Positions 4,832 to 44,374 of a DNA stretch of 64,000 nucleotides are shown one piece after another. Source of the DNA: Bacteroidota bacterium (GTDB lineage: Bacteria; Bacteroidota; Bacteroidia; Bacteroidales; FEN-979); assembly GCA_043810345.1 (NCBI GenBank), contig JBDROF010000006.1, forward strand, positions 6,603 to 70,602, written 5' to 3'. The translations under genes and the position numbers were made by a program. A model generated the notes under the pieces. That model did not search any database. It saw only the letters and a list, made by a program, of their open reading frames with translations, and was not told the origin of the DNA. The number at the start of each line of letters is the position of its first letter. The stretch's first letter is position 1.

Positions 4832-4835
4832 AGGA

Positions 4836-4858
4836 CTGCCAACTGCCAACTGCCAACT
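4836..4858. repeat. (CTGCCAA)x3.3 heptamer array
   Basis: Read directly, starting 5 nt after the Fic stop codon. Confidence 0.9.
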
Positions 4859-12562: not shown

Positions 12563-13015
12563 TCAGGTATTTTTAGCTTCCAGATTATCCAGATCCGCCA
12601 AATCCTGCAACCTGCCGGTTGCTTTTTTATTTTTTTTCAGGTTTTCCAGATCGATGAAATTAATTATGAGCCCATCCACTTCAACTACCAACCGGCTTTG
12701 ATAACATGTTGTAAAATCAACTCCATCACATGACAGAACAAGATCAATTCTATTCGGAGGGTAGCCAATTTGAATAAATTCATCAGTTTTTAAAAAATCC
12801 TCCTTTTTTAATCCTATCCCGTCCATACCGAATGCTGAAAGCGCTTTCATTATCTGGTCAGCATTTTCATCGGAAGAAAGCAACCATACGTCCAAATCCT
12901 TAGTATATCTAGGATAGCCATGCAATCCAACGGCATAACCACCTACAATCAGGTACTGGACATCATTTGTATTTAAGGATCCGATAAACTCTCTGAAATC
13001 TTTGTTCAGCACCAT
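12563..13015 (-). CDS. nucleotidyltransferase-fold protein (MNT/AbiEii-like), function unknown
   Basis: 150 aa with YLIVGGYAVGLHGYPRYTKDLDVWL, which resembles the GG/S...DxD minimal nucleotidyltransferase core. Visibly AT-richer locus. Confidence 0.5.
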   Translation of the reverse strand: MVLNKDFREFIGSLNTNDVQYLIVGGYAVGLHGYPRYTKDLDVWLLSSDENADQIMKALSAFGMDGIGLKKEDFLKTDEFIQIGYPPNRIDLVLSCDGVDFTTCYQSRLVVEVDGLIINFIDLENLKKNKKATGRLQDLADLDNLEAKNT

Positions 13016-13492
13016 ATTTCCATAAATTATATTCTTGTCTTATCTCTTCCAAAACGATAAGTCTACTCACCAATGGCTGTGACTGCCAAAATAAAAAATC
13101 ATTTCCTTGTTCAGAGATTTTACCTCTATGAACTACCGTTTTATCAATCATAGCTTCAGTCTGGGATTAATTTGTATGTCAACGTTACCACATCCATCAT
13201 GATGTTTTTCCTTCCGCTAAAGTAACATTTTTTTCAATACTTTTCAAGGTTCCACTTGCTAAAACCTTACAGACATCGTTCTTTTCCAGACATACCCCAA
13301 CTTATTCAACTCGATTTTTCTATTGATCGGGTGTACCAGTAAAAGGTAATACGTCAAGCTCAATTTTTTTTTACCGCAGAGGCAGCAGAGGAAACACAGA
13401 GGTCCTTCGTCCCACGTCATTTTGTCAGCCTGCCCTGCTTGGCACCCTCTTTGTCAATCCCACGGCAACGAATAACCAAAAACTGAACAACT

Positions 13493-15463
13493 ATGCAAAC
13501 AGGAAAGATCAACGTCCAAACGGAGAATATTTTCCCTATCATCAAGAAATTCCTCTACTCGGAACATGAGATCTTCCTCCGGGAGCTGATCTCCAATGCG
13601 GTGGATGCCACTCAGAAACTAAAGACCCTGGCCTCCCTAGGAAAATACAAGGGGAAGCTCGGTGATCTGACCATCCAGGTGAAGGTCAACAAGAAGAAGA
13701 AAACCCTTTCGGTCACCGACCGGGGAATTGGGATGACAGCCGACGAGCTGAATAAGTACATCAACCAGATCGCTTTTTCCAGCGCCGAAGAGTTTGTCAG
13801 CCAGTTCAAGACCAAGTCGGAAGCCGAGATGAATGCCATCATCGGTCATTTCGGACTGGGCTTTTATAGCTCTTTCATGGTCTCCGATAAGGTGGAGATC
13901 AATACCAGAACATACCGGAGCGGAGAGGGTACCGAAGCGGTCATGTGGGAGTGCGATGGGAGTCCGGAATACAAGATGGACACATCAAAGAAGAAAGAGA
14001 GGGGCACCGAGGTGGTCCTTCATATGGCCGACGACTCCCTGGAGTACCTGGAAGATCACCGGGTGCTTGAGATCCTGAAGAAATATTGCCGCTTCCTGCC
14101 GGTACCGATCCAGTTTGGAACGGAGAAGGTGTATGAACCTGTGAAGGACGAAGGACGAGGGACGAAGGACGAAGGACGAGGGACGAAGGACGAAGAGGTC
14201 ATTGCGAGCGAAGCGAAGCAAACCGATGGAAAAGAGCCCAAGACGAAAGAGGTAGAAAAACCCAGGATCATCAATGATACCAATCCGCTCTGGAAGCAGA
14301 AGCCGTCGGAACTTAAGGACGAAGATTATAAGAACTTTTACCGCAAACTCTATCCCTACAGCTTTGAGGAGCCGCTTTTCCATATCCACCTCAACGTGGA
14401 TTTTCCCTTCAACCTCACCGGGATCCTCTATTTTCCCAAGGTAAAGCGGACACTGGAGATCCAGAAAGACAAAATCCAGCTCTATTGCAACCAGGTGTTT
14501 GTGACCGACTCGGTGGAGGGAATTGTTCCCGACTTCCTGACGTTGTTACATGGCGTTCTCGACTCACCGGACATCCCGCTGAATGTATCCCGCAGCTTCC
14601 TGCAGAGTGATCCCAATGTGAAAAAGATCTCCAACCATATCATGAAGAAGGTGGCCGACAAGCTGGAAGAGCTATTCAAGGAGGACCGGAAGAACTTTGA
14701 AAAGAAATGGGACGACATCAAGGTCTTCATCGAATATGGCATCATCTCCGAAGCCAACTTCTACGACCGGGCAAAAAAGTTTTGCCTGCTGAAGAATACC
14801 GAAGGGAAATACTTCACCTTCGAAGAATATGAAAAGCACATTGCTCCTGCCCAGAAGGACAAACAGGGAACCCTGATCTACCTTTACTCCACCAATCCGG
14901 AAGAGCAGTACAGCTACATCCAGGCGGTCAAAGAACGCGGCTACGATGTGTTGTTGCTCGACGGCGTGATCGATTCCCATTTCATCAACACCCTGGAACA
15001 GAAGTTTGAAAAATCGCACTTTACCCGGGTGGATGCCGATACCATTGAGAAGCTGATCAAAAAGGAGGATGCCCAGCCATCCAAACTCAACGAGGATCAG
15101 CAAAAATCGCTGAAAGAGCTGATGGAGAAACAGATCGATTCAAAGAAATACACCATCACCTTTGAAAGCCTGAGTGAAAAGGAGGCCCCGTTCATGCTCA
15201 CCCAGCCGGAATTCATGCGCCGGATGAAAGATATGTCGGCCCTGGGTGGGGGGATGGGGTACATGGGCGAACTCCCCGATCACTTTAACCTCGCGGTCAA
15301 CTCCAACAACCCGGTCATCGGCAAACTGCTGCTGGAACCGGACGGAGGCAAACAGGCAGCCACCATCAAACAGCTCTTCGACCTCGCCCTCCTGGCCCAG
15401 GGTCTGCTGAAAGGAAAGGAGTTGGCGGAGTTTATCAAGCGCAGTACGGAGCTGGTGAAATGA
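13493..15463 (+). CDS. htpG: molecular chaperone HtpG (Hsp90), with repeat-derived linker insertion
   Basis: LRELISNAVDA, GIGMT, IGHFGLGFYS and the C-terminal dimerisation region identify it. Residues KDEGRGTKDEGRGTKDEEVIASEAKQ are encoded by a tandem heptamer array. Confidence 0.95.
   Translation: MQTGKINVQTENIFPIIKKFLYSEHEIFLRELISNAVDATQKLKTLASLGKYKGKLGDLTIQVKVNKKKKTLSVTDRGIGMTADELNKYINQIAFSSAEEFVSQFKTKSEAEMNAIIGHFGLGFYSSFMVSDKVEINTRTYRSGEGTEAVMWECDGSPEYKMDTSKKKERGTEVVLHMADDSLEYLEDHRVLEILKKYCRFLPVPIQFGTEKVYEPVKDEGRGTKDEGRGTKDEEVIASEAKQTDGKEPKTKEVEKPRIINDTNPLWKQKPSELKDEDYKNFYRKLYPYSFEEPLFHIHLNVDFPFNLTGILYFPKVKRTLEIQKDKIQLYCNQVFVTDSVEGIVPDFLTLLHGVLDSPDIPLNVSRSFLQSDPNVKKISNHIMKKVADKLEELFKEDRKNFEKKWDDIKVFIEYGIISEANFYDRAKKFCLLKNTEGKYFTFEEYEKHIAPAQKDKQGTLIYLYSTNPEEQYSYIQAVKERGYDVLLLDGVIDSHFINTLEQKFEKSHFTRVDADTIEKLIKKEDAQPSKLNEDQQKSLKELMEKQIDSKKYTITFESLSEKEAPFMLTQPEFMRRMKDMSALGGGMGYMGELPDHFNLAVNSNNPVIGKLLLEPDGGKQAATIKQLFDLALLAQGLLKGKELAEFIKRSTELVK
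14144..14224. repeat. (GAAGGAC/GAGGGAC)x8 heptamer array plus GTCATTGCGAGCGAAGCGAAGCAA module, inside htpG
   Basis: Read directly. Both are in frame and encode KDEGRGTKDEGRGTKDEEVIASEAKQ. Confidence 0.9.
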
Positions 15464-15547
15464 CGTAAGACGTAAGACGTGAGACGTGAGACGTGAGACG
15501 TGAGACGTGAGACGTGAGACGTGAGACGTGAGACGTGAGACGTGAGA
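15464..15547. repeat. (CGT[A/G]AGA)x12 heptamer array
   Basis: Read directly. It starts at the base after the htpG TGA and ends 2 nt before the stop of the four-helix-bundle gene. Confidence 0.95.
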
Positions 15548-15549
15548 TG

Positions 15550-15939
15550 TTAGACGGACCGGGTTCTACAGAAGAGTTCAGCCCGCTGTTCCATAGTTAT
15601 TAACTGAGCCATGATGTGATCATATTTCTCTCTTAATTGATTATACTCTTCGTCTTTGCAGTATTCGCATGAGAATATAAACTCCAGCCAGGTTTGTGTT
15701 TCAGCAGCTTCCGTTTGGCAATCGGTTACCTTATTAATAAACATCGCGATGTACCTTCGTTTGTGCCAGCTTTCGGCCAGGTTGCTGCAAACAGACCGAG
15801 ATGCTCGTCGTACCTGATCAGTTAAAGAGTATCGTTCCTCCTTTGGAAACTTCTTCGATAATTCAAAGATCTCCATGGCGGCCTGAAATGCAAGTTTATA
15901 TACATTCAGCTCCCGCACATTTTTTGCATGAGTTTTCAT
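15550..15939 (-). CDS. four-helix-bundle protein (23S rRNA intervening-sequence protein family)
   Basis: 129 aa with YKLAFQAAMEIFELSKKFPKEERYSLTDQVRRASRSVCSNLAE...ETQTWL, typical of the TIGR02436-type family as I recall it. Confidence 0.8.
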   Translation of the reverse strand: MKTHAKNVRELNVYKLAFQAAMEIFELSKKFPKEERYSLTDQVRRASRSVCSNLAESWHKRRYIAMFINKVTDCQTEAAETQTWLEFIFSCEYCKDEEYNQLREKYDHIMAQLITMEQRAELFCRTRSV

Positions 15940-16012: not shown

Positions 16013-16042
16013 CGTCTCACGTCTTACGTCTCACGTCTCACG
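16013..16042. repeat. (CGTCT[C/T]A)x4 heptamer array, inverted relative to 15464-15547
   Basis: Read directly. It is the reverse complement of the GTGAGAC family. Confidence 0.95.
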
Positions 16043-16866: not shown

Positions 16867-16876
16867 ACTGAATCCA

Positions 16877-16904
16877 CGTCTTACGTCTTACGTCTCACGT
16901 CTTA
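16877..16904. repeat. (CGTCT[T/C]A)x4 heptamer array
   Basis: Read directly, between lemA and the first TPM gene. Confidence 0.95.
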
Positions 16905-16913
16905 CATCAAAAT

Positions 16914-17428: not shown

Positions 17429-18214
17429 ATGAGCAATTACAAAATTATTATACTCACCCTCCTCCTCTGTGATGGGATACTGGCGGTTTCACAGGACATT
17501 CCCCTCCGTCCGGAGCCCCCGCGCCTGGTCAATGACCTGGCCGGGATCCTGACACCGGACCAAATTCAACAGCTGGAATACAAACTGGTCAACTTCAGCG
17601 ACTCCACCTCCACCCAGATCGCAGTGGTTACTGTAAAATCCCTTAACGGCTACGACAAAGCCGATTTTGCCTTCCGGATCGGGGAGCAATGGGGGGTGGG
17701 TCAGAAAGGAAAAAACAACGGCATTGTCGTGTTGGTTAAGCCAAAATACGGGGAGGAGCGTGGAGAAGCATACATTGCTATCGGTTATGGCCTCGAAGGG
17801 GTGATCCCCGACGCCATCGGGATACGTATCGTGGAGTATGAGATGATTCCGAACTTCAAGGAGGGCAACTATTTCGGGGGGCTTGATGCCGCCGCCACCA
17901 CCCTGATGGAGCTGGCCAGCGGCGAATTCACGGCTGATCAGTACGTGAATAAGACACAACGAAACCCCTATGCGATCTTTATCCCCATTCTGGTTTTGCT
18001 GCTGATCTTTTTCCTTATCCGCTCCAGTCGTGCACGCTCCCATTCGGTGGGCAAGAGCATTCCTTTCTGGACTGCTTTCTGGTTACTGGGGAGTATGGGT
18101 GGACACAGCGGCAACTGGAAGAATTTCTCCTCCGGCGGTGGCTCTTTCGGAGGCGGAGGAGGGGGATTCGGCGGAGGTAGCTTTGGCGGAGGCGGCGCCG
18201 GGGGGAGCTGGTGA
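17429..18214 (+). CDS. TPM domain-containing membrane protein (YgcG-like)
   Basis: Signal peptide, a TPM domain (LVNDLAGILTPDQIQQLEYKL...TQIAVVTV), a TM helix and a Gly-rich tail. Confidence 0.8.
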   Translation: MSNYKIIILTLLLCDGILAVSQDIPLRPEPPRLVNDLAGILTPDQIQQLEYKLVNFSDSTSTQIAVVTVKSLNGYDKADFAFRIGEQWGVGQKGKNNGIVVLVKPKYGEERGEAYIAIGYGLEGVIPDAIGIRIVEYEMIPNFKEGNYFGGLDAAATTLMELASGEFTADQYVNKTQRNPYAIFIPILVLLLIFFLIRSSRARSHSVGKSIPFWTAFWLLGSMGGHSGNWKNFSSGGGSFGGGGGGFGGGSFGGGGAGGSW

Positions 18215-18245
18215 GACGTAAGACGTGAGACGTGAGACGTGAGAC
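18211..18245. repeat. (GT[G/A]AGAC)x5 heptamer array
   Basis: Read directly. The TGA stop of the second TPM gene lies in the first unit. Confidence 0.95.
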
Positions 18246-18274
18246 GAGGATTATTGAATTTTTAATTCCGAACT

Positions 18275-21302: not shown

Positions 21303-21327
21303 AATTCATAATTCGTAATTCGTAATT
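21303..21327. repeat. (AATTC[A/G]T)x3.5 heptamer array (preceded by GGTAGCGAx2)
   Basis: Read directly, just after the cydB stop. Confidence 0.9.
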
Positions 21328-21475: not shown

Positions 21476-22120
21476 ATGGAGGCAATCACCGATTTTTTTG
21501 ACCTGCTAATCCATTCGGACAAACTGATCCGGCTGGGTGGGCTGACGTTACTGCTGCTCATTGTTTACATGGAAACCGGTGTCTTTTTTGGGTTTATTTT
21601 TGCCGGGGATGCCCTGTTATTCAGCGCCGGCCTTTTGTGCGGGACCGACTTGCTGGACGTCAACCTCTTTGTCCTTTTATTTCTGGTCACCGCCGCTGCC
21701 ATTGCCGGCAACCTCACCGGATATTATACGGGGAAATTTCTTGGGAAGAAGCTACATACAAAACAGGATTCCTGGTTCTTTAAAAAGCGACACCTGGAGA
21801 AAACACATCTCTTTTATGAAAAATATGGTGGGATGTCACTGGTCGCCGGGCGCTTTGTCTGGATCGTAAGAACCTTTGTCCCCATCCTCGCCGGAGCTTC
21901 CGACATGAGCTTCCGGAGGTTTAATTTCTTTAACATCCTGGGAGCATTCCTGTGGGTCTGGTCCATCATCCCACTGGGCTACCTGGCTGGCCACCTGATC
22001 CCGAATGCAGAGGAGAATCTGGAATACTTTGTACTGGCAATTACGTTGATAGCAACGATGATCCTTGTGCGGGGAATCTACAATGTATCCAGGCGAAAAA
22101 ACGAAGGTAGCAATTCGTAA
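21476..22120 (+). CDS. DedA/VTT family membrane protein
   Basis: ETGVFFGFIFAGDALLFSAG...AGRFVWIVRTFVPILAG. The start is taken at the first ATG (MEAITDFF); the track ORF begins at an upstream TTG. Confidence 0.8.
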   Translation: MEAITDFFDLLIHSDKLIRLGGLTLLLLIVYMETGVFFGFIFAGDALLFSAGLLCGTDLLDVNLFVLLFLVTAAAIAGNLTGYYTGKFLGKKLHTKQDSWFFKKRHLEKTHLFYEKYGGMSLVAGRFVWIVRTFVPILAGASDMSFRRFNFFNILGAFLWVWSIIPLGYLAGHLIPNAEENLEYFVLAITLIATMILVRGIYNVSRRKNEGSNS

Positions 22121-22129
22121 TTCGTAATT
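22112..22129. repeat. (AATTCGT)x2.5 heptamer array
   Basis: Read directly. It contains the dedA TAA stop. Confidence 0.85.
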
Positions 22130-30033: not shown

Positions 30034-30138
30034 GATAGGGCGCAGGGCGCAGGAACCAGCAGGACAACCGGAACCGACCACTGACAACAGCCGTGAGACC
30101 CGGCAACCAGAAACAAGCAACCAGAAACCATTCCCAAA

Positions 30139-30909: not shown

Positions 30910-31563
30910 ATGAAACACTTCCTCTTTCTGCTCCTTATCCTGATTACTGGCCTCTCCGCAACACAGCCCTCGTTCCAGATCGCGTTGCTGAAATACAACG
31001 GCGGGGGCGACTGGTACGCCAATCCCACCTCCCTGCCCAACCTCGTGAAGTTTGCCAACCAGCACCTGGGAACCAATATCAGTGAGGAGATCGCTACGGT
31101 GGAGGTGGGAAGCAACGAACTCTTCCACTACCCGTTCATCCATATGACCGGCCATGGGAATGTGCTCTTTTCGCAACAGGAGGCCCGGAATCTCAGGGAA
31201 TACTTACTGGCTGGAGGATTCCTGCACATCGACGACAATTACGGGCTGGATAAATATATCCGTCCGCAAATGAAACTGGTATTTCCGGAGTTGGATTTTA
31301 TCGAACTCCCGTTCTCTCACCCTATTTACCACCAGAAATTCAATTTTCCGAACGGACTTCCCAAGATCCATGAACACGACAATCAGGCTCCCCAGGGATT
31401 TGGCCTGATCTGGCAAGGGAGGCTGATTTGCTTCTACTCTTATGAATGCGACCTCGGAGATGGCTGGGAGAACCAACAGGTGCATCACGATTCTGAAGCC
31501 ACCCGGTTGAAGGCCCTGCAGATGGGAGCCAATATGCTGGAGTTTGTTTTTACCCAAGAATAG
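30910..31563 (+). CDS. DUF4159 domain-containing protein
   Basis: Signal peptide plus LLKYNGGGDWYANPTSLPNL...GGFLHIDDNYG...HPIY, which I recall as DUF4159. Confidence 0.7.
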   Translation: MKHFLFLLLILITGLSATQPSFQIALLKYNGGGDWYANPTSLPNLVKFANQHLGTNISEEIATVEVGSNELFHYPFIHMTGHGNVLFSQQEARNLREYLLAGGFLHIDDNYGLDKYIRPQMKLVFPELDFIELPFSHPIYHQKFNFPNGLPKIHEHDNQAPQGFGLIWQGRLICFYSYECDLGDGWENQQVHHDSEATRLKALQMGANMLEFVFTQE

Positions 31564-31671
31564 GAATGCAGGAATGCAGGAATGCAGTAATGTAGGAATA
31601 ACATGATGCACCTGTCTAACCTGTCTAACCTGTCTAACCTGTCTAACCTGTCCACTTGTCCGCTTGTCCGC
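31562..31671. repeat. composite micro-arrays: (AGGAATGC)x3, (CCTGTCTAA)x4, (CTTGTCCG)x2
   Basis: Read directly, between the DUF4159 gene and the hdr-like locus. Confidence 0.9.
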
Positions 31672-31678
31672 TTTTTCA

Positions 31679-34933: not shown

Positions 34934-35779
34934 ATGACATTCACTGAGCTTCTTGAATACCACCTCGCCGACATCGGGAACTTCTCCCTCACGGTTTCCG
35001 AATTGTTACTCATCGTGGTGATCTTTATCGCAACGTGGTTCCTCCTTTTTTTGATCAAAAGAGTGGTAGTCAGAACCATGTCAAAAGACAAATATGTAGC
35101 CGGACGACAATACTCCGTCTTCCTGCTGATAAGATACCTGGTCTGGATCATTGCCATCGTACTGATCATCGAAACGATCGGGGTGAAGGTCACGTTCCTG
35201 ATCGCCAGCTCTGCTGCTCTTCTGGTCGGACTTGGCCTGGGTTTGCAACAGATCTTTCAGGACATCGTCTCGGGAATTTTTATCCTTTTTGAGGGGACTA
35301 TCAAGGTAGACGACATCCTGGATGTAGGAGGGATAGTTGGAAAAATCAAAGAGATCCACCTCCGTACTTCTACCCTCCTGACCCGGGACGGAACGGTGCT
35401 GATCATCCCTAACCATAAGTTCATCAACGAGAATGTGATCAACTGGAGCCATAACCTCGAACCCACCCGTTTCCGGGTGCAGGTTGGCGTCTCTTATAGT
35501 TCAGATGAGACACAGGTGCGGGATATCCTCTATCAGTGTGCGGCCGAACATCCAGAGGTGATCAACGACCAGCCGGAGATCAAACCCATCGTACGAATTA
35601 TCGATTTCGGCGACAGCTCCGTGGTTTTTGAGATCCTCTTCTGGAGTCACGACATGTTCTGGATCGAAAACATCAAAAGCGATATCCGCTTCAAGATCCG
35701 GGAGAAATTCAGGAAAGAGGGAGTTGTTATTCCATTCCCGCAGAGAGATGTGCACGTAATTGCTCCTCCAGCACCCTGA
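34934..35779 (+). CDS. mechanosensitive ion channel (MscS family) protein
   Basis: Three TM helices, then [22 protein letters not shown]...[20 protein letters not shown]. Confidence 0.85.
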
Positions 35780-38465
35780 TCCTCGCTTTCGCGTCGGCTT
35801 TTTTCTTTCGTTCGTTCTCGACCACGTTTGACGGCGCGTTGCTGACAAACCGTTCGTTGCACAGCTTCTTCTCTACCGAGGCCAGAAATCCCCGGGTATA
35901 GGCCAGCTCCTCCTGCAGCTTGCGAAGCTCCTCTTCGCGATCCACCTGTGCGGAGAGAGGAATGTAGAATTCAGTGGTCCGCACCACAAACGAAACCGTG
36001 CCGGCCTGCTTCTCATCCACATAAGCCAGTTCGTCGATCCCGCAGAGCTTCATCACCACCTCATCAAAGGTGACATCCACCGGTTCGGAGTGGTTCTTTT
36101 TGATCATCATCCGGATCTTCTCCTTCTGGGCGATGTTTTTCTCTTTCCTGACCGTCCGGATAGCGGTGACAACCTCCTTTGCAAATTCGAATGATTTAAG
36201 TAATCCGGGATCCGGTAAATACCCCTCCCCCAGCCCCTCCCCAACAAGGGAGGGAGATAAGCCCCCTTCAGGGGATTTGGGGGTACAATCCGGGATCGGC
36301 GCTATCATTATCGAGGCTCCCTGTTCCCTTTCAGCCAGCCGCTGCCAGATCTCTTCGGTAATAAAAGGGAGGAAAGGATGAAGCACCCGCAGGAGTTCAT
36401 CAAAAAAACCGACCGTTGCCTGGAAGGTCATGGAATCGATGGGCTGCCGGAAACCAGGTTTGATCATCTCCAGGTACCACGAACAGAAATCATCCCAGAA
36501 GAGCTTATAGATTGCCATCAGGACTTCTGACAACCGGTAGGCCACAAACAACTCTTCGATCTCCTTCAACGATTGGGCAAACTGACTCTCAAACCAGGCT
36601 GCGGAAACCTGACATGCCTGTGTTTGCCCCTGAGATGCATCCACCTCCCACCCCTTTACCAACCGGAATGCGTTCCATAACTTATTGCAGAAGTTCCTTC
36701 CCTGTTCAATCAATCCTTCATCAAAGAGCAGATCGTTGCCTGCCGGGGAACATAAAAGCATCCCCATCCTGACTGCATCGGCTCCGTGCTGATCAATCAG
36801 CCGAAGGGGTTCAGGCGAATTTCCCATCGACTTGGACATCTTTCGCCCCGTTTTATCCCGCACAATACCCGTAAAATAGACGTTGTGAAAAGGGATCTCG
36901 TTCCGGTATTCCAGTCCGGCCATGATCATCCGGGCCACCCAGAAAAAGATGATCTCGGGAGCGGTAACCAGGTCATGGGTCGGGTAGTAGTAATTGATAT
37001 CCGGGTTATCCGGCTTCCTGATGCCATCAAACACCGAGATCGGCCACAACCAGCTGGAGAACCAGGTGTCCATGACATCAGGATCCTGGGTAAGATCGTG
37101 AATCGTGAGACGTGAGACGTGAGACGTGATTGCGGACTGCGGACTGTGGACTGCAGACTTGGCTTTTTCAAAGGCCTCTTCTTTGCTCTTCGCCACGATC
37201 ACCGTCCCATCGGGGAGGTACCAGGCCGGGATCCGCTGTCCCCACCAGAGCTGGCGGGAGATGCACCAATCCTGGACGTGTTCCATCCAGTGACGGTACA
37301 TGTTCTTGTATTTGGAAGGGTGGAAACGAACCGTATCGTTCTCAACCACCTCCAATGCCGGGCCTGCCAGCTCTTTCATCCGGAGGAACCACTGCACGGA
37401 GATCCTCGGTTCGATCACTTCATCGGTGCGTTCGGAGTAGCCAATCTTATTTGCGTAATCTTCAATTTTTACAATGTGCCCGGCGGCATCAAGGTCGGTC
37501 ACGATCTTTTTCCGCACGGCAAACCGCTCCTCACCAATGTAAAGTTGGGCAGCTTCACTCATGGTGCCATCGGGGTTGAAGGTATCCACCACCTCCAGGT
37601 TGTGTTTGAGTCCCAGGTTGTAATCGTTGATATCATGGGCCGGCGTGACTTTCAGTGCGCCAGTTCCAAACGCTATATCTACATAGTCATCAAAGATGAC
37701 CGGCACCGACCGGTTGATCAGCGGAATGAGAATACGTTTGCCTTTCAGATGGGCATACTTGTCATCATCCGGGTGGACGCAAATGGCTGTGTCGCCCAGG
37801 ATCGTTTCGGGCCGGGTGGTAGCAATCGTCACATGCTCATCAACCGTATCCTCTATCTTGTACCGGAGGTAATATAACTTCGATTGCACCTCTTTGTAGA
37901 TTACCTCCTCATCGGAAACAACTGTCAGCGCCAAGGGGTCCCAGTTCACCATACGGGCTCCACGATAGATTAATCCCTTGTTATACAGATCGATAAATAC
38001 ATCGATAACCGAATCGTACCTGGCTTCATCCATGGTAAAACAGGTCCGATCCCAGTCGCACGAAGCTCCCAGCTTCTTCAACTGTTCCAGGATGATCCCC
38101 CCATGTTTCTCTTTCCACGTCCAGGCATGCTCCAAAAACTGCTCCCGGTTAAGTTCCGATTTATCGATCCCCTCCTCTTTGAGTTTCGCCACTACCTTGG
38201 CCTCTGTGGCAATGGATGCATGATCGGTGCCGGGAACCCAGCAGGCATTTTTGCCGCTCATCCGGGCTTTCCTGACCAGGATATCCTGGATCGTATTGTT
38301 GAGCATGTGCCCCATGTGGAGGACACCGGTTACATTCGGAGGGGGAATTACAATGCAGTAAGGTTTGCGGTTGTCGGGTTCAGAATGAAAATATCCCTGT
38401 TTCATCCAGTAGTCGTACCATTTGCTCTCAACTAATGCAGGGTTATATCTTGAAGGAATCTCCAT
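35727..38465 (-). CDS. valS: valine--tRNA ligase, with two repeat-derived in-frame insertions
   Basis: [13 protein letters not shown] (HIGH), KMSKSMGN (KMSKS), the editing domain and a C-terminal coiled coil. Insertions are at about 37097-37159 and 36211-36296. Confidence 0.95.
36211..36296. repeat. two GC-tract hairpin modules inserted in frame in valS
   Basis: Encodes ...[27 protein letters not shown]... Matches the intergenic copies at 8967-8987 and 17388-17415. Confidence 0.8.
37097..37159. repeat. 9 heptamer units (5x CGTGA[G/A/T][A/T] plus 4x G[C/T][G/A]GACT) in frame in valS
   Basis: Read directly. 63 bp = 21 codons, encoding [20 protein letters not shown]. Confidence 0.9.
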
Positions 38466-38544
38466 CGTGTATCAGTCAATTTAGAAGCTGCAAAATTACG
38501 AAAACCGGGATAAATACTTCCTCCCAGCCCCACATAACAGGGCT

Positions 38545-38576
38545 AATTCATAATTCGTAATTCGTAATTCGTAATT
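38545..38576. repeat. (AATTC[A/G]T)x4.5 heptamer array
   Basis: Read directly, in the valS upstream / DUF58 downstream intergenic region. Confidence 0.9.
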
Positions 38577-39870: not shown

Positions 39871-39909
39871 AGGTTATTCAATTAAGAATTAAGCATTACA
39901 AAGATAGGG

Positions 39910-43648: not shown

Positions 43649-44374
43649 ATGCCAGCAAAGATCAGATTACAGAGAAGGGGTAAAAAGGGACAACCTTTTT
43701 ATCACATTATGATTGCGGATGGTCGTGCACCACGTGACGGAAGATTCATTGAAAAAATTGGCTATTACAATCCTCTGACCAAACCTGCAGAGATTGAGAT
43801 CAATTTTGAGAGCGCCCTTTACTGGTTGCAGAAGGGAGCACAACCCACGGATACGGTCAGAGCCATCCTCTCCTACAAAGGAGTTATGTACAAAAACCAC
43901 CTGCTGAAAGGAGTTCAGAAGGGAGCGTTGACACCCGAACAGGTTGAAGAGAAGTTCCAGGTATGGCTCTCGGAAAAGGAGGCCAGGATCAACTCGAAAA
44001 AGAATGAACAGGAGCTGAGTCTCAAAGAGGCGCACAAAGCTGCCCTCGACCATGAGAAAAAGGTAAACGAAACCAAAGCCCAGGCTCTGGCAAAGAAATA
44101 TGCCAAGGCAAAGAAAGCAGCTGAAGGAGAAGCCGAAGAAGAGGGTCCTGCTGCGAAAGAGGGAGCCACGGAGGTGACCGGGTCTGTAGCGGAACCTGCG
44201 GCCGGAGAGGTGACTGAGGAGGGTGCAAAAGCTGAAGAACCAGCTCCAGAAGAGGAACCAACCCAAGAAGAACCGACCGAAGAAGAACCAACCGGGGAAG
44301 AACCAACCGTGGAAGAACCAACCGTAGAAGAACCAACCGTGGAAGAACCAAAGAAAGAGGAACCGTTGCCGTAA
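43649..44374 (+). CDS. rpsP: 30S ribosomal protein S16 with acidic repeat tail
   Basis: [42 protein letters not shown]. The C-terminal half is Lys/Ala/Glu-rich and ends in EEPTx pentapeptide repeats. Confidence 0.9.
44252..44356 (+). repeat. 7 x 15-bp coding repeat (GAAGAACCAACCnnn; EEPTx) in the rpsP tail
   Basis: Read directly. In frame. Confidence 0.9.

Follow-up and report, generated by a model that had tools for sequence, protein, structure and literature searches.

A heptanucleotide repeat array read in frame at a variable site of valS in an uncultured Bacteroidales lineage

We analysed a 64,000-nucleotide stretch of contig JBDROF010000006.1 (hereafter the window) from an uncultured member of the Bacteroidales. 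Its reverse strand encodes valine-tRNA ligase (ValRS), and in the middle of this gene, valS, lies a tandem array of 7-nucleotide units that is translated in frame. The original prediction, made from the letters of the window, described two heptamer arrays that had invaded, or expanded within, an essential gene and had been retained only at a frame-neutral length. The observation was correct; its interpretation is only partly right.

The identity of the host gene is clear. The open reading frame (ORF) aligns with Thermus thermophilus ValRS (1GAX) across residues 1-890 (E = 2.5e-184) and has the class I motifs HMGH at residues 50-53 and KMSKS at residues 542-546. Its homologues have the Pfam domains tRNA-synt_1, Anticodon_1 and Val_tRNA-synt_C, with PF00133, PF13603, PF08264 and PF10458 among their matches, and with these features the protein belongs to the valine-tRNA ligases, which are class Ia aminoacyl-tRNA synthetases. 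The gene is an essential, housekeeping one; a second valS copy beyond the 64-kb window is possible. Pfam also agrees with the names given earlier to the neighbouring genes that matter here, assigning HSP90 (htpG), LemA and TPM domains.

Read on the forward strand, the nine units of the valS array are CGTGAAT CGTGAGA CGTGAGA CGTGAGA CGTGATT GCGGACT GCGGACT GTGGACT GCAGACT, that is, five units of the form CGTGADW and then four of the form GYRGACT, in a single 7-nt register and in frame. The coding strand reads (A)GTCTGC AGTCCAC AGTCCGC AGTCCGC AATCACG TCTCACG TCTCACG TCTCACG ATTCACG, which can be re-phased from a conserved Gln-Asp (QD) anchor as GTCTGCA GTCCACA GTCCGCA GTCCGCA ATCACGT CTCACGT CTCACGT CTCACGA TTCACGA. 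The peptide of residues 437-456, which stands immediately ahead of a conserved block, is coded by positions 37098-37157, and the other three nucleotides of the array fall in the codons of K436 and D457. Tandem Repeats Finder reports period 7 at 37104-37129 (3.7 copies, 100% matches) and at 37131-37159 (4.1 copies, 86% matches). The five plus four units are thus borne out by the sequence, by Tandem Repeats Finder, by pattern counts and by the ORF; their separation into two arrays is not, because we find one array of graded unit variants.

The pattern counts also connect the array to the rest of the window. The doublet pattern CGTGADWCGTGADW has 16 matches, against 0.00 expected from shuffled sequence. 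Four of these lie inside valS and the remainder at 15478-15547 (after htpG), 16029-16042 (before the LemA gene) and 18224-18244 (after the TPM gene). The doublet pattern GYRGACTGYRGACT has three matches, against 0 expected from shuffles, and all three are in valS. That the first five valS units belong to the same family as the arrays after htpG and the TPM gene, as originally proposed, therefore holds: they share CGTGAGA doublets, of which none would be expected. Features of the valS locus and of the related arrays are collected in Table 1.

Table 1. Position and strand of valS, its two repeat-bearing segments and the related heptamer arrays in the window.
Feature	Position	Strand	Basis or remark
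valS, valine-tRNA ligase, 912 amino acids (aa), intact	35727..38465	-	ORF; 1GAX similarity; HMGH and KMSKS motifs
Composite heptanucleotide array, 9 units, 63 bp, one register; encodes 20-residue peptide, aa 437-456	37097..37159	-	
Sub-array A: 5 CGTGADW units (+ strand) = NTCACGN (coding strand); intergenic-array unit family	37097..37131	-	Pattern matches
Sub-array B: 4 GYRGACT units (+ strand) = GTCYRCA (coding strand)	37132..37159	-	Units match GTCCACA and GTCCCCA in mid-array of relative L081
valS hotspot 1: IPAWY..DTWFSS segment, aa 412-471, 60 aa	37053..37232	-	C-terminal part of CP3-equivalent region, just before second half of Rossmann fold
valS hotspot 2: inter-domain linker, aa ~708-767	36165..36344	-	Two CCGGATY heptamers (36202-36215) and GC-rich insert with hairpin (~36222-36283)
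In-frame array (GAAGGAC) x 7.6 in htpG charged linker; encodes KDEGRGTKDEGRGTKDE	14143..14195	+	htpG 13493-15463
(GACGTGA) x 13.6, intergenic, begins at htpG stop codon; sub-array A family, stop-containing orientation	15462..15556	+	
(CGTCTCA) x 4.3, intergenic, upstream of LemA gene; sub-array A unit family	16013..16042	+	
(ACGTCTT/C) x 4.3, intergenic, 10 nt past LemA stop codon; sub-array A unit family	16876..16905	+	
(GTGAGAC) x 5.1, intergenic, overlaps stop codon of TPM-domain gene; sub-array A unit family	18211..18246	+	

Since 7 cannot be divided by 3, copies of the unit are translated in all three frames in turn, and three units make up one 7-residue repeat. Translated in this way GTCTCAC gives VSRLTSH; the opposite orientation, GTGAGAC, contains TGA. 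In agreement with the earlier claim of a frame-neutral length, only a configuration that keeps the frame and is free of stops can survive in valS. The array region folds no better than shuffled sequence (z = 0.08) and has no palindrome, being purely tandem, and an Rfam scan of the window matched no family.

Is the array new to this gene? The nearest ValRS proteins (75-84% identity, 862-926 aa) come from uncultured Bacteroidales or Bacteroidota metagenome-assembled genomes (MAGs), and at exactly the same site relatives have different 7-residue periodic peptides: VTSHESRVTSHESRVT, PPVTSHQSPVTSHQPPVT, HPASGIQNPASSIQHP and LAVGSWQLA. One further homologue, P0011, has a peptide, ASHVSPLTIDDL, that resembles the one in the window at the protein level. 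We compared ten relatives (L081, L083, L085, L087-L092 and L094; ValRS identity 71-84%) at the DNA level. The gene order dnaE-trx-DUF58-valS is conserved in them, with mscS downstream in most, though not all. All ten carry period-7 sequence at the same valS codons, although L090 retains only a remnant. The idea of a recent invasion fails at this point: the array would appear to have been inherited across this uncultured Bacteroidales lineage, not newly inserted.

The units in the relatives include CAGTTGG, CAGTCAC, GAGTCAC, CAGCCAC, CATCCAG, CAGGATC and AGTACGA. When 7-mers are counted backwards, starting at the codon for Q in the conserved QD pair, eight arrays (the window, L094, L081, L089, L087, L083, L092 and L091) have one register and an NTCA core in common. 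Four of the eight (the window, L094, L089 and L092) end in TTCACGA|TCT or CTCACGA|TTT, overlapping conserved Asp-Leu codons. Within this shared frame the unit variants and the array lengths differ among the eight genes, and each unit variant is present in differing numbers, so that copy number varies between related genomes. The NTCACGN-type units of the window recur in L094 as CTCACGT and TTCACGA at the same position, and the central part of the L081 array includes the variants GTCCACA and GTCCCCA. A more distant homologue (P0022) with a 53-residue loop has the peptide SKIKDQNSKIG at this site, coded by TCAAAAA TCAAAGA TCAAAAT TCAAAAA.

The length of the loop tells the same site's history from another side. 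The stretch between the conserved motifs IPAWY and DTWFSS measures 53 aa in most of the close homologues compared (79 of 116); that of the window measures 60 aa and is thus longer by 7 aa, or three units. The proposed 21-residue insertion is therefore contradicted, the net gain being only 7 aa; orthologues for the most part do have a segment of similar length here. Among relatives at 71-84% identity the loop ranges from 39 to 84 aa. Nineteen of the homologues have loops that depart from 53 aa by at least 5 aa; in eight of them the difference is divisible by 7 (binomial p = 0.003, with 1/7 as the expectation). The loop of Bacteroides, Prevotella and Alistipes has 50-53 residues, most often 51, and in most of these genes lacks periodicity (for example, EKTGNASLTLADL).

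At the corresponding site T. thermophilus ValRS has a CxxC...CxxC segment (1GAX Cys417/420/438/441) that is 12 residues shorter than that of the window. The CP3 subdomain of the homologous isoleucine-tRNA ligase varies between species in topology and zinc content (PMC7191050). Together, the differing T. thermophilus segment and the variability of CP3 point to a variable peripheral part of ValRS. An AlphaFold2 model built on a 50-sequence alignment was poor (mean pLDDT 65, pTM 0.40) and placed residues 441-450 in a coil with pLDDT below 50.

The pattern reaches well beyond the close relatives. We profiled diverse Bacteroidota valS loci, taking 80 among the matches listed (L001-L080; at most 67% identity), and located in each gene the 35-position window with the most self-matches at a lag of 7 nt. 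This best window lay inside the hotspot, which is ~6% of the gene, in 23 of the 69 listed valS genes from Bacteroidota outside the clade (binomial p = 3e-11, for loci that are not phylogenetically independent). Among the matches listed, all 14 genes that score at least 21/35 at lag 7 have their peak at the hotspot; control lags of 4, 5, 8, 10 and 11 nt rarely reach 21/35. Cultured organisms are among the 14: Winogradskyella sp., Flavobacterium maritimum, Bizionia hallyeonensis and Flavobacteria bacterium BAL38. In seven of the 14 loci the hotspot itself was detected as an array, and seven of the 34 period-7 arrays in the 1.04 Mb of L001-L080 are at this valS site.

Units in the distant genes include ACCAACA ACCAACA ACTAACA, encoding TNNQQLT, four perfect copies of AAATTCA, and CAACTCA-type units in Sediminibacterium. 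The 7-nt periodicity is thus found at the same site in Flavobacteriales and in Sediminibacterium, a genus of the order Chitinophagales. The site may hold a single old array that erodes and grows anew, or it may be a place where arrays arise again and again; either would fit. In a groundwater Bacteroidia MAG (L005), hotspot 1 has a 35-nt unit (5 x 7) present twice, with a CTGCCGGCAGG palindrome, and encodes ...PTLPAGRQESQIPPCLPAGRNP...; its loop is a composite of the heptamer register and a small palindromic element.

Within species-level groups the array is stable. The hotspot peptide is identical in 11 of 11 full-length members of the P0003 cluster, which come from different assemblies, and in other 90%-identity clusters. 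Substitutions do occur elsewhere in the same segments of such clusters. Such invariance speaks against both phase variation and noise from assembly. For the ValRS of the window itself, an exact-protein look-up found no second copy, a 22-nt exact anchor of valS had no match in the JGI metagenomes, and a search with a 301-aa ValRS fragment returned nothing above 76% identity. Another part of the window could be compared directly. The contig JBDRSY010000398.1 of an independent MAG (L093, GCA_043824395.1) equals window positions 12656-15497 with 2 mismatches in 2842 bp. It reproduces the in-frame array of htpG and ends inside the 13-unit array after that gene; heptamer arrays fragment short-read assemblies. 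Two ValRS homologues, P0017 (1029 aa) and P0020 (1025 aa), have internal duplications of ~150 residues of ValRS sequence, one of them beginning at hotspot 1, and are probably the result of misassembly at repeats.

Hotspot 1 is not the only in-frame site. From anchor to anchor (aa 696-774), hotspot 2 of the window spans 79 aa against a canonical 58 aa, and relatives have (CCGGATC)n, encoding PDPGSRIPDPG, or (GGATACC)n, or (CAAATNT)n around residues 725-755. The GC-rich insert of hotspot 2 has a 7-bp CCCTCCC/GGGAGGG stem and is found among relatives only in P0002/L087. It has no other copy in the window and only one among 92 loci, and it may be a small palindromic element. The in-frame array in htpG lies in a linker that is 44-73 aa long in relatives and has the same motif.

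Orientation is biased in these coding arrays. In the coding sense the units are stop-free and hydrophilic (VSRLTSH, QSAVRSP, QSPVTSH, QLAVGSW, PDPGSRI, EGRRTKD, SKIKNQK and TNNQQPT), whereas the reverse orientations give stops or hydrophobic, Cys-rich peptides (VRRET*D, VTGDW*L, FLIFDF* and CWLLVVG). Only two of the window's eight strong lag-7 regions fall in coding sequence; since the window is mostly coding, by an unquantified reading of the ORF map, a filter appears to act on arrays within genes.

Heptamers dominate the repeat landscape of the window as a whole. Period 7 accounts for 11 arrays (392 bp) in the window, against 0-3 arrays for every other period from 4 to 12, and it dominates likewise in the loci of the relatives. 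The GTCTCAC class is present at five loci in the window. The TGA stops of htpG (15461-15463) and of the TPM-domain gene (18212-18214) lie inside the first (GACGTGA)n unit, and the same heptamer, GGAGCTG, precedes both arrays. This suggests that the two loci are copies of one another and that the arrays define the ends of the genes.

Several further repeats lie in the window or in the loci of relatives. Heptamer arrays of ACTGCCA, AATTCGT, AGGGCGC, TAATTCG and AATTAAG occupy short gaps after, or overlapping, stop codons at 4835-4858, 21303-21327, 22112-22129, 30037-30053, 38544-38576 and 39880-39898; ACTGCCA is the reverse complement of the CAGTTGG unit found within valS of relatives. Arrays with 8- or 9-nt units are present at the 3' ends of genes at 614-649 and 31562-31673 (CTATTTCG x 4.5, AGGAATGC x 4.8, ACCTGTCTA x 4.8 and TGTCCGCT x 3.1), and three different arrays stand back to back behind a DUF4159 gene. 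Relatives have very long intergenic heptamer arrays of 13-21 units (L091, 2247-2382; L092, 1526-1615 and 1708-1830; L004, 8352-8498), and in L092 arrays of the same unit in opposite orientation flank a small ORF. The ribosomal protein S16 encoded by rpsP (43649-44374) has a long C-terminal tail that ends in (EEPTx)n, from 15-nt and 45-nt repeats at 44249-44365; S16 is 176-279 aa long among relatives.

How did a repeat with a unit of 7 nt come to stay in an essential gene? We favour, with a probability of about 0.7, a long-lived heptanucleotide microsatellite that is read in three frames within the variable CP3-equivalent region of ValRS and is shaped by slippage and selection. Replication slippage would alter the array and new unit variants would spread within it, with ectopic exchange with the intergenic arrays of the same units as a possible contributor. 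Purifying selection on the essential enzyme would remove frame breaks, stop codons (which would fix the orientation) and hydrophobic peptides. The survivors would differ mostly by 21-nt steps and would encode a flexible loop rich in Ser, Thr, Pro, Gln and His. The encoded peptide is most likely a passenger that has no specific function.

A number of observations weigh against this explanation. Slippage is what we infer from comparison between genomes, and neither reads nor a second valS assembly of the same species was found. Array length does not vary within the 90%-identity clusters, so turnover would be slow for a microsatellite. Eleven of the 19 large changes in loop length are not multiples of 7 aa, which means that other indels also act and that 21-nt steps are a major but not the sole mode; the multiple-of-three rule of the original prediction is accordingly an approximation, followed by the other eight. 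The loop may be exposed at the protein surface, going by the alignment with 1GAX and by an AlphaFold2 model too poor to establish it. By sequence, the clade's 38 arrays group into only 10 classes, whereas 300 random heptamer draws gave a mean of 23 and a minimum of 14. (Classes were formed by single-linkage clustering at a distance of at most 1, which chains unrelated units, and we use only the class count against this null.) Pure in-situ slippage does not predict so restricted a vocabulary, and it leaves unexplained both the stop codons in the first array unit and the GGAGCTG flank shared by two loci. Moreover, 12 of the 14 distant loci whose signal is strong have no further above-threshold period-7 array in ~13 kb, a hint that the valS site is special.

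The restricted vocabulary, the placement at stop codons and the lone valS arrays could be taken as signs that the repeats serve some function or had a dedicated origin, which we think unlikely. On such an account the heptamer arrays would be the output or the target of a sequence-specific system, and they would act at the nucleic-acid level as protein-binding sites or translational pauses; the valS array would be a selected regulatory element, for instance one that binds a protein or slows the ribosome between CP3 and the second half of the Rossmann fold. The persistence of 7-nt periodicity at this site across Bacteroidota, the reuse of a few heptamers at non-orthologous loci and the position of intergenic arrays exactly at stop codons speak for it, and for heptamer repeats, intergenic TAACTGA among them, others have suggested a post-transcriptional role (PMC4679880). 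Against this, the valS units are wholly different from lineage to lineage (TCAAAAA, ACCAACA, CAGTCAC, CAGTTGG, CATCCAG and GTCTCAC) and have no recognisable motif in common. The array is nearly lost in L090 (873 aa), and most valS genes of Bacteroides, Prevotella and Alistipes are aperiodic. Relative to transcription, the valS array is oriented opposite to the arrays after htpG and the TPM gene. An explanation at the RNA level was set aside, as the window has no Rfam match and the array no significant fold. A role in this sense therefore seems to us improbable, and recent invasion of valS by an intergenic-type array, whether through ectopic recombination or as a small mobile unit kept because it was frame-neutral, distinctly so. 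The CGTGAGA units of valS are identical to the dominant intergenic unit of the genome, several loci have a common unit vocabulary, and the flank shared by the htpG and TPM arrays suggests copying between loci. These points have to be set against same-register orthologous arrays in relatives at 71-84% identity, among them L094 with its NTCACGN-type units, and against a net gain of three units' worth of residues where nine units would have come in. At valS there are also no target-site duplications, no terminal inverted repeats and no flanks shared with the intergenic arrays; a mobile element at hotspot 1 was rejected, since it has neither inverted repeats nor shared junctions.

It is very unlikely that selection acted on a 7-residue peptide repeat as a structural or interaction motif, with the DNA periodicity following from it. 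Flavobacteriia and Bacteroides do keep a fixed-length T-x-N-x-x-L-T-x-x-D-L at the site, and the encoded peptides are consistently hydrophilic. The period, however, is 7 nt and not 21 nt, and perfect (AAATTCA)4 and (CAGTTGG)4 arrays arise only at the DNA level. Moreover, close relatives have unrelated peptides (VSRLTSH, QSPVTSH, AVGSWQL and PASSIQH) in a loop of widely varying length. Most remote of all is an artefact of assembly or sequencing, absent from the true gene, in which a repeat had been collapsed or expanded or a chimera formed. Arrays of this kind do break short-read assemblies, as the contig ending after htpG illustrates, and the species of the window offers no reads or second valS assembly for comparison. 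The ORF is nevertheless intact across the array, which is only 63 bp long; homologous arrays are identical in up to 11 independent assemblies of relatives, and the in-frame htpG array is identical in an independent MAG of the same organism.

Heptanucleotide simple sequence repeats (SSRs) of this kind are already known. According to PMC4679880, heptamers are the most abundant class of long SSR in prokaryotes, are present in Bacteroidetes and are occasionally found in ORFs, where the orientation is always the one without stops; that paper also cites the long SSRs of Mrazek et al. 2007, which are the same kind of repeat. The arrays described here have the marks of that family: at least three head-to-tail units, an excess of period 7, reuse of units and variation in copy number. 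They closely resemble the TAACTGA repeats of Beggiatoaceae, Cyanobacteria and some Bacteroidetes (MacGregor 2015, PMC4679880), tandem 7-nt units that are reused at many loci, are mostly intergenic, often touch start or stop codons and have occasional stop-free copies in ORFs read in three frames (TCAGTTA gives LSVISYQ). The units are different, and arrays here follow stop codons whereas TAACTGA arrays precede start codons. Unlike the TAACTGA copies, which lie at the periphery of proteins, the valS array is in the middle of a core essential enzyme, is orthologous throughout a lineage and occupies a site that recurs across the phylum.

The GGGNATC repeats of Xanthomonas and Nostoc (Rehm et al. 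2015, PMC4692102) are likewise genome-wide heptamers that are over-represented in non-coding DNA and under-represented in ORFs. The same paper places heptamer arrays preferentially within 50 bp of stop codons, and GGGNATC repeats on the sense strand, within 50 bp of a stop codon or overlapping it, as are arrays in the window. It describes these repeats as G-rich, able to form G-quadruplexes and preferring four units; the units here (GTCTCAC, CAGTCCG, AATTCGT and others) lack G-tracts. The passages of it that we read highlight no in-frame case in an essential gene (PMC4692102). Like a contingency locus, the valS array has within an ORF a unit that is not a multiple of 3, so that a change of a single unit would shift the frame. 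Unlike such loci, it lies in the middle of a gene that is essential and housekeeping, not a dispensable surface, restriction-modification or virulence gene; and we see no frame switching, for the array is in frame in every homologue seen and invariant within species-level clusters of relatives.

Two other systems invite comparison. The short tandemly repeated repetitive (STRR) sequences of Calothrix, Anabaena and Nostoc, reportedly described by Mazel and colleagues in 1990, are said to be a small vocabulary of tandem, dispersed heptamers of unknown function. Cyanobacterial STRR sequences are mentioned in PMC4692102. The arrays of the window are similar in being a small, tandem and dispersed vocabulary, but they belong to another phylum, have other units and include in-frame copies in housekeeping genes, whereas STRR sequences are intergenic targets for fingerprinting. 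Rickettsia palindromic elements (RPEs), reportedly described by Ogata and colleagues in 2000, are said to be dispersed palindromic sequences of ~100-150 bp that insert as a unit, in frame, in genes. They too are genome-specific repeats tolerated in frame in essential genes, at surface-exposed sites in the case of RPEs, and the peptide has no known function. The valS array is instead a tandem 7-nt microsatellite that has neither the inverted repeats nor the hairpin of RPEs or of miniature inverted-repeat transposable elements; the GC-rich hairpin insert of hotspot 2 is closer to the RPE model. RPEs are mentioned in PMC1779305 and PMC10969869.

What is new, therefore, is not the kind of repeat but an in-frame hotspot in the essential gene valS that is shared across the phylum; in searches of the literature we came across no description of such arrays for valS or for other genes of aminoacyl-tRNA synthetases. 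The finding means that an essential enzyme can harbour, over very long periods, a microsatellite with a unit length not divisible by 3, which is translated in all three frames and yields lineage-specific 7-residue repeats in a tolerant loop. Odd low-complexity peptides that stem from such arrays should not be taken by annotators for errors or for domain insertions. The valS loop, periodic in several orders of Bacteroidota, is a natural marker for the turnover of arrays and a suitable site at which to measure slippage, the homogenisation of units and selection on the reading frame.

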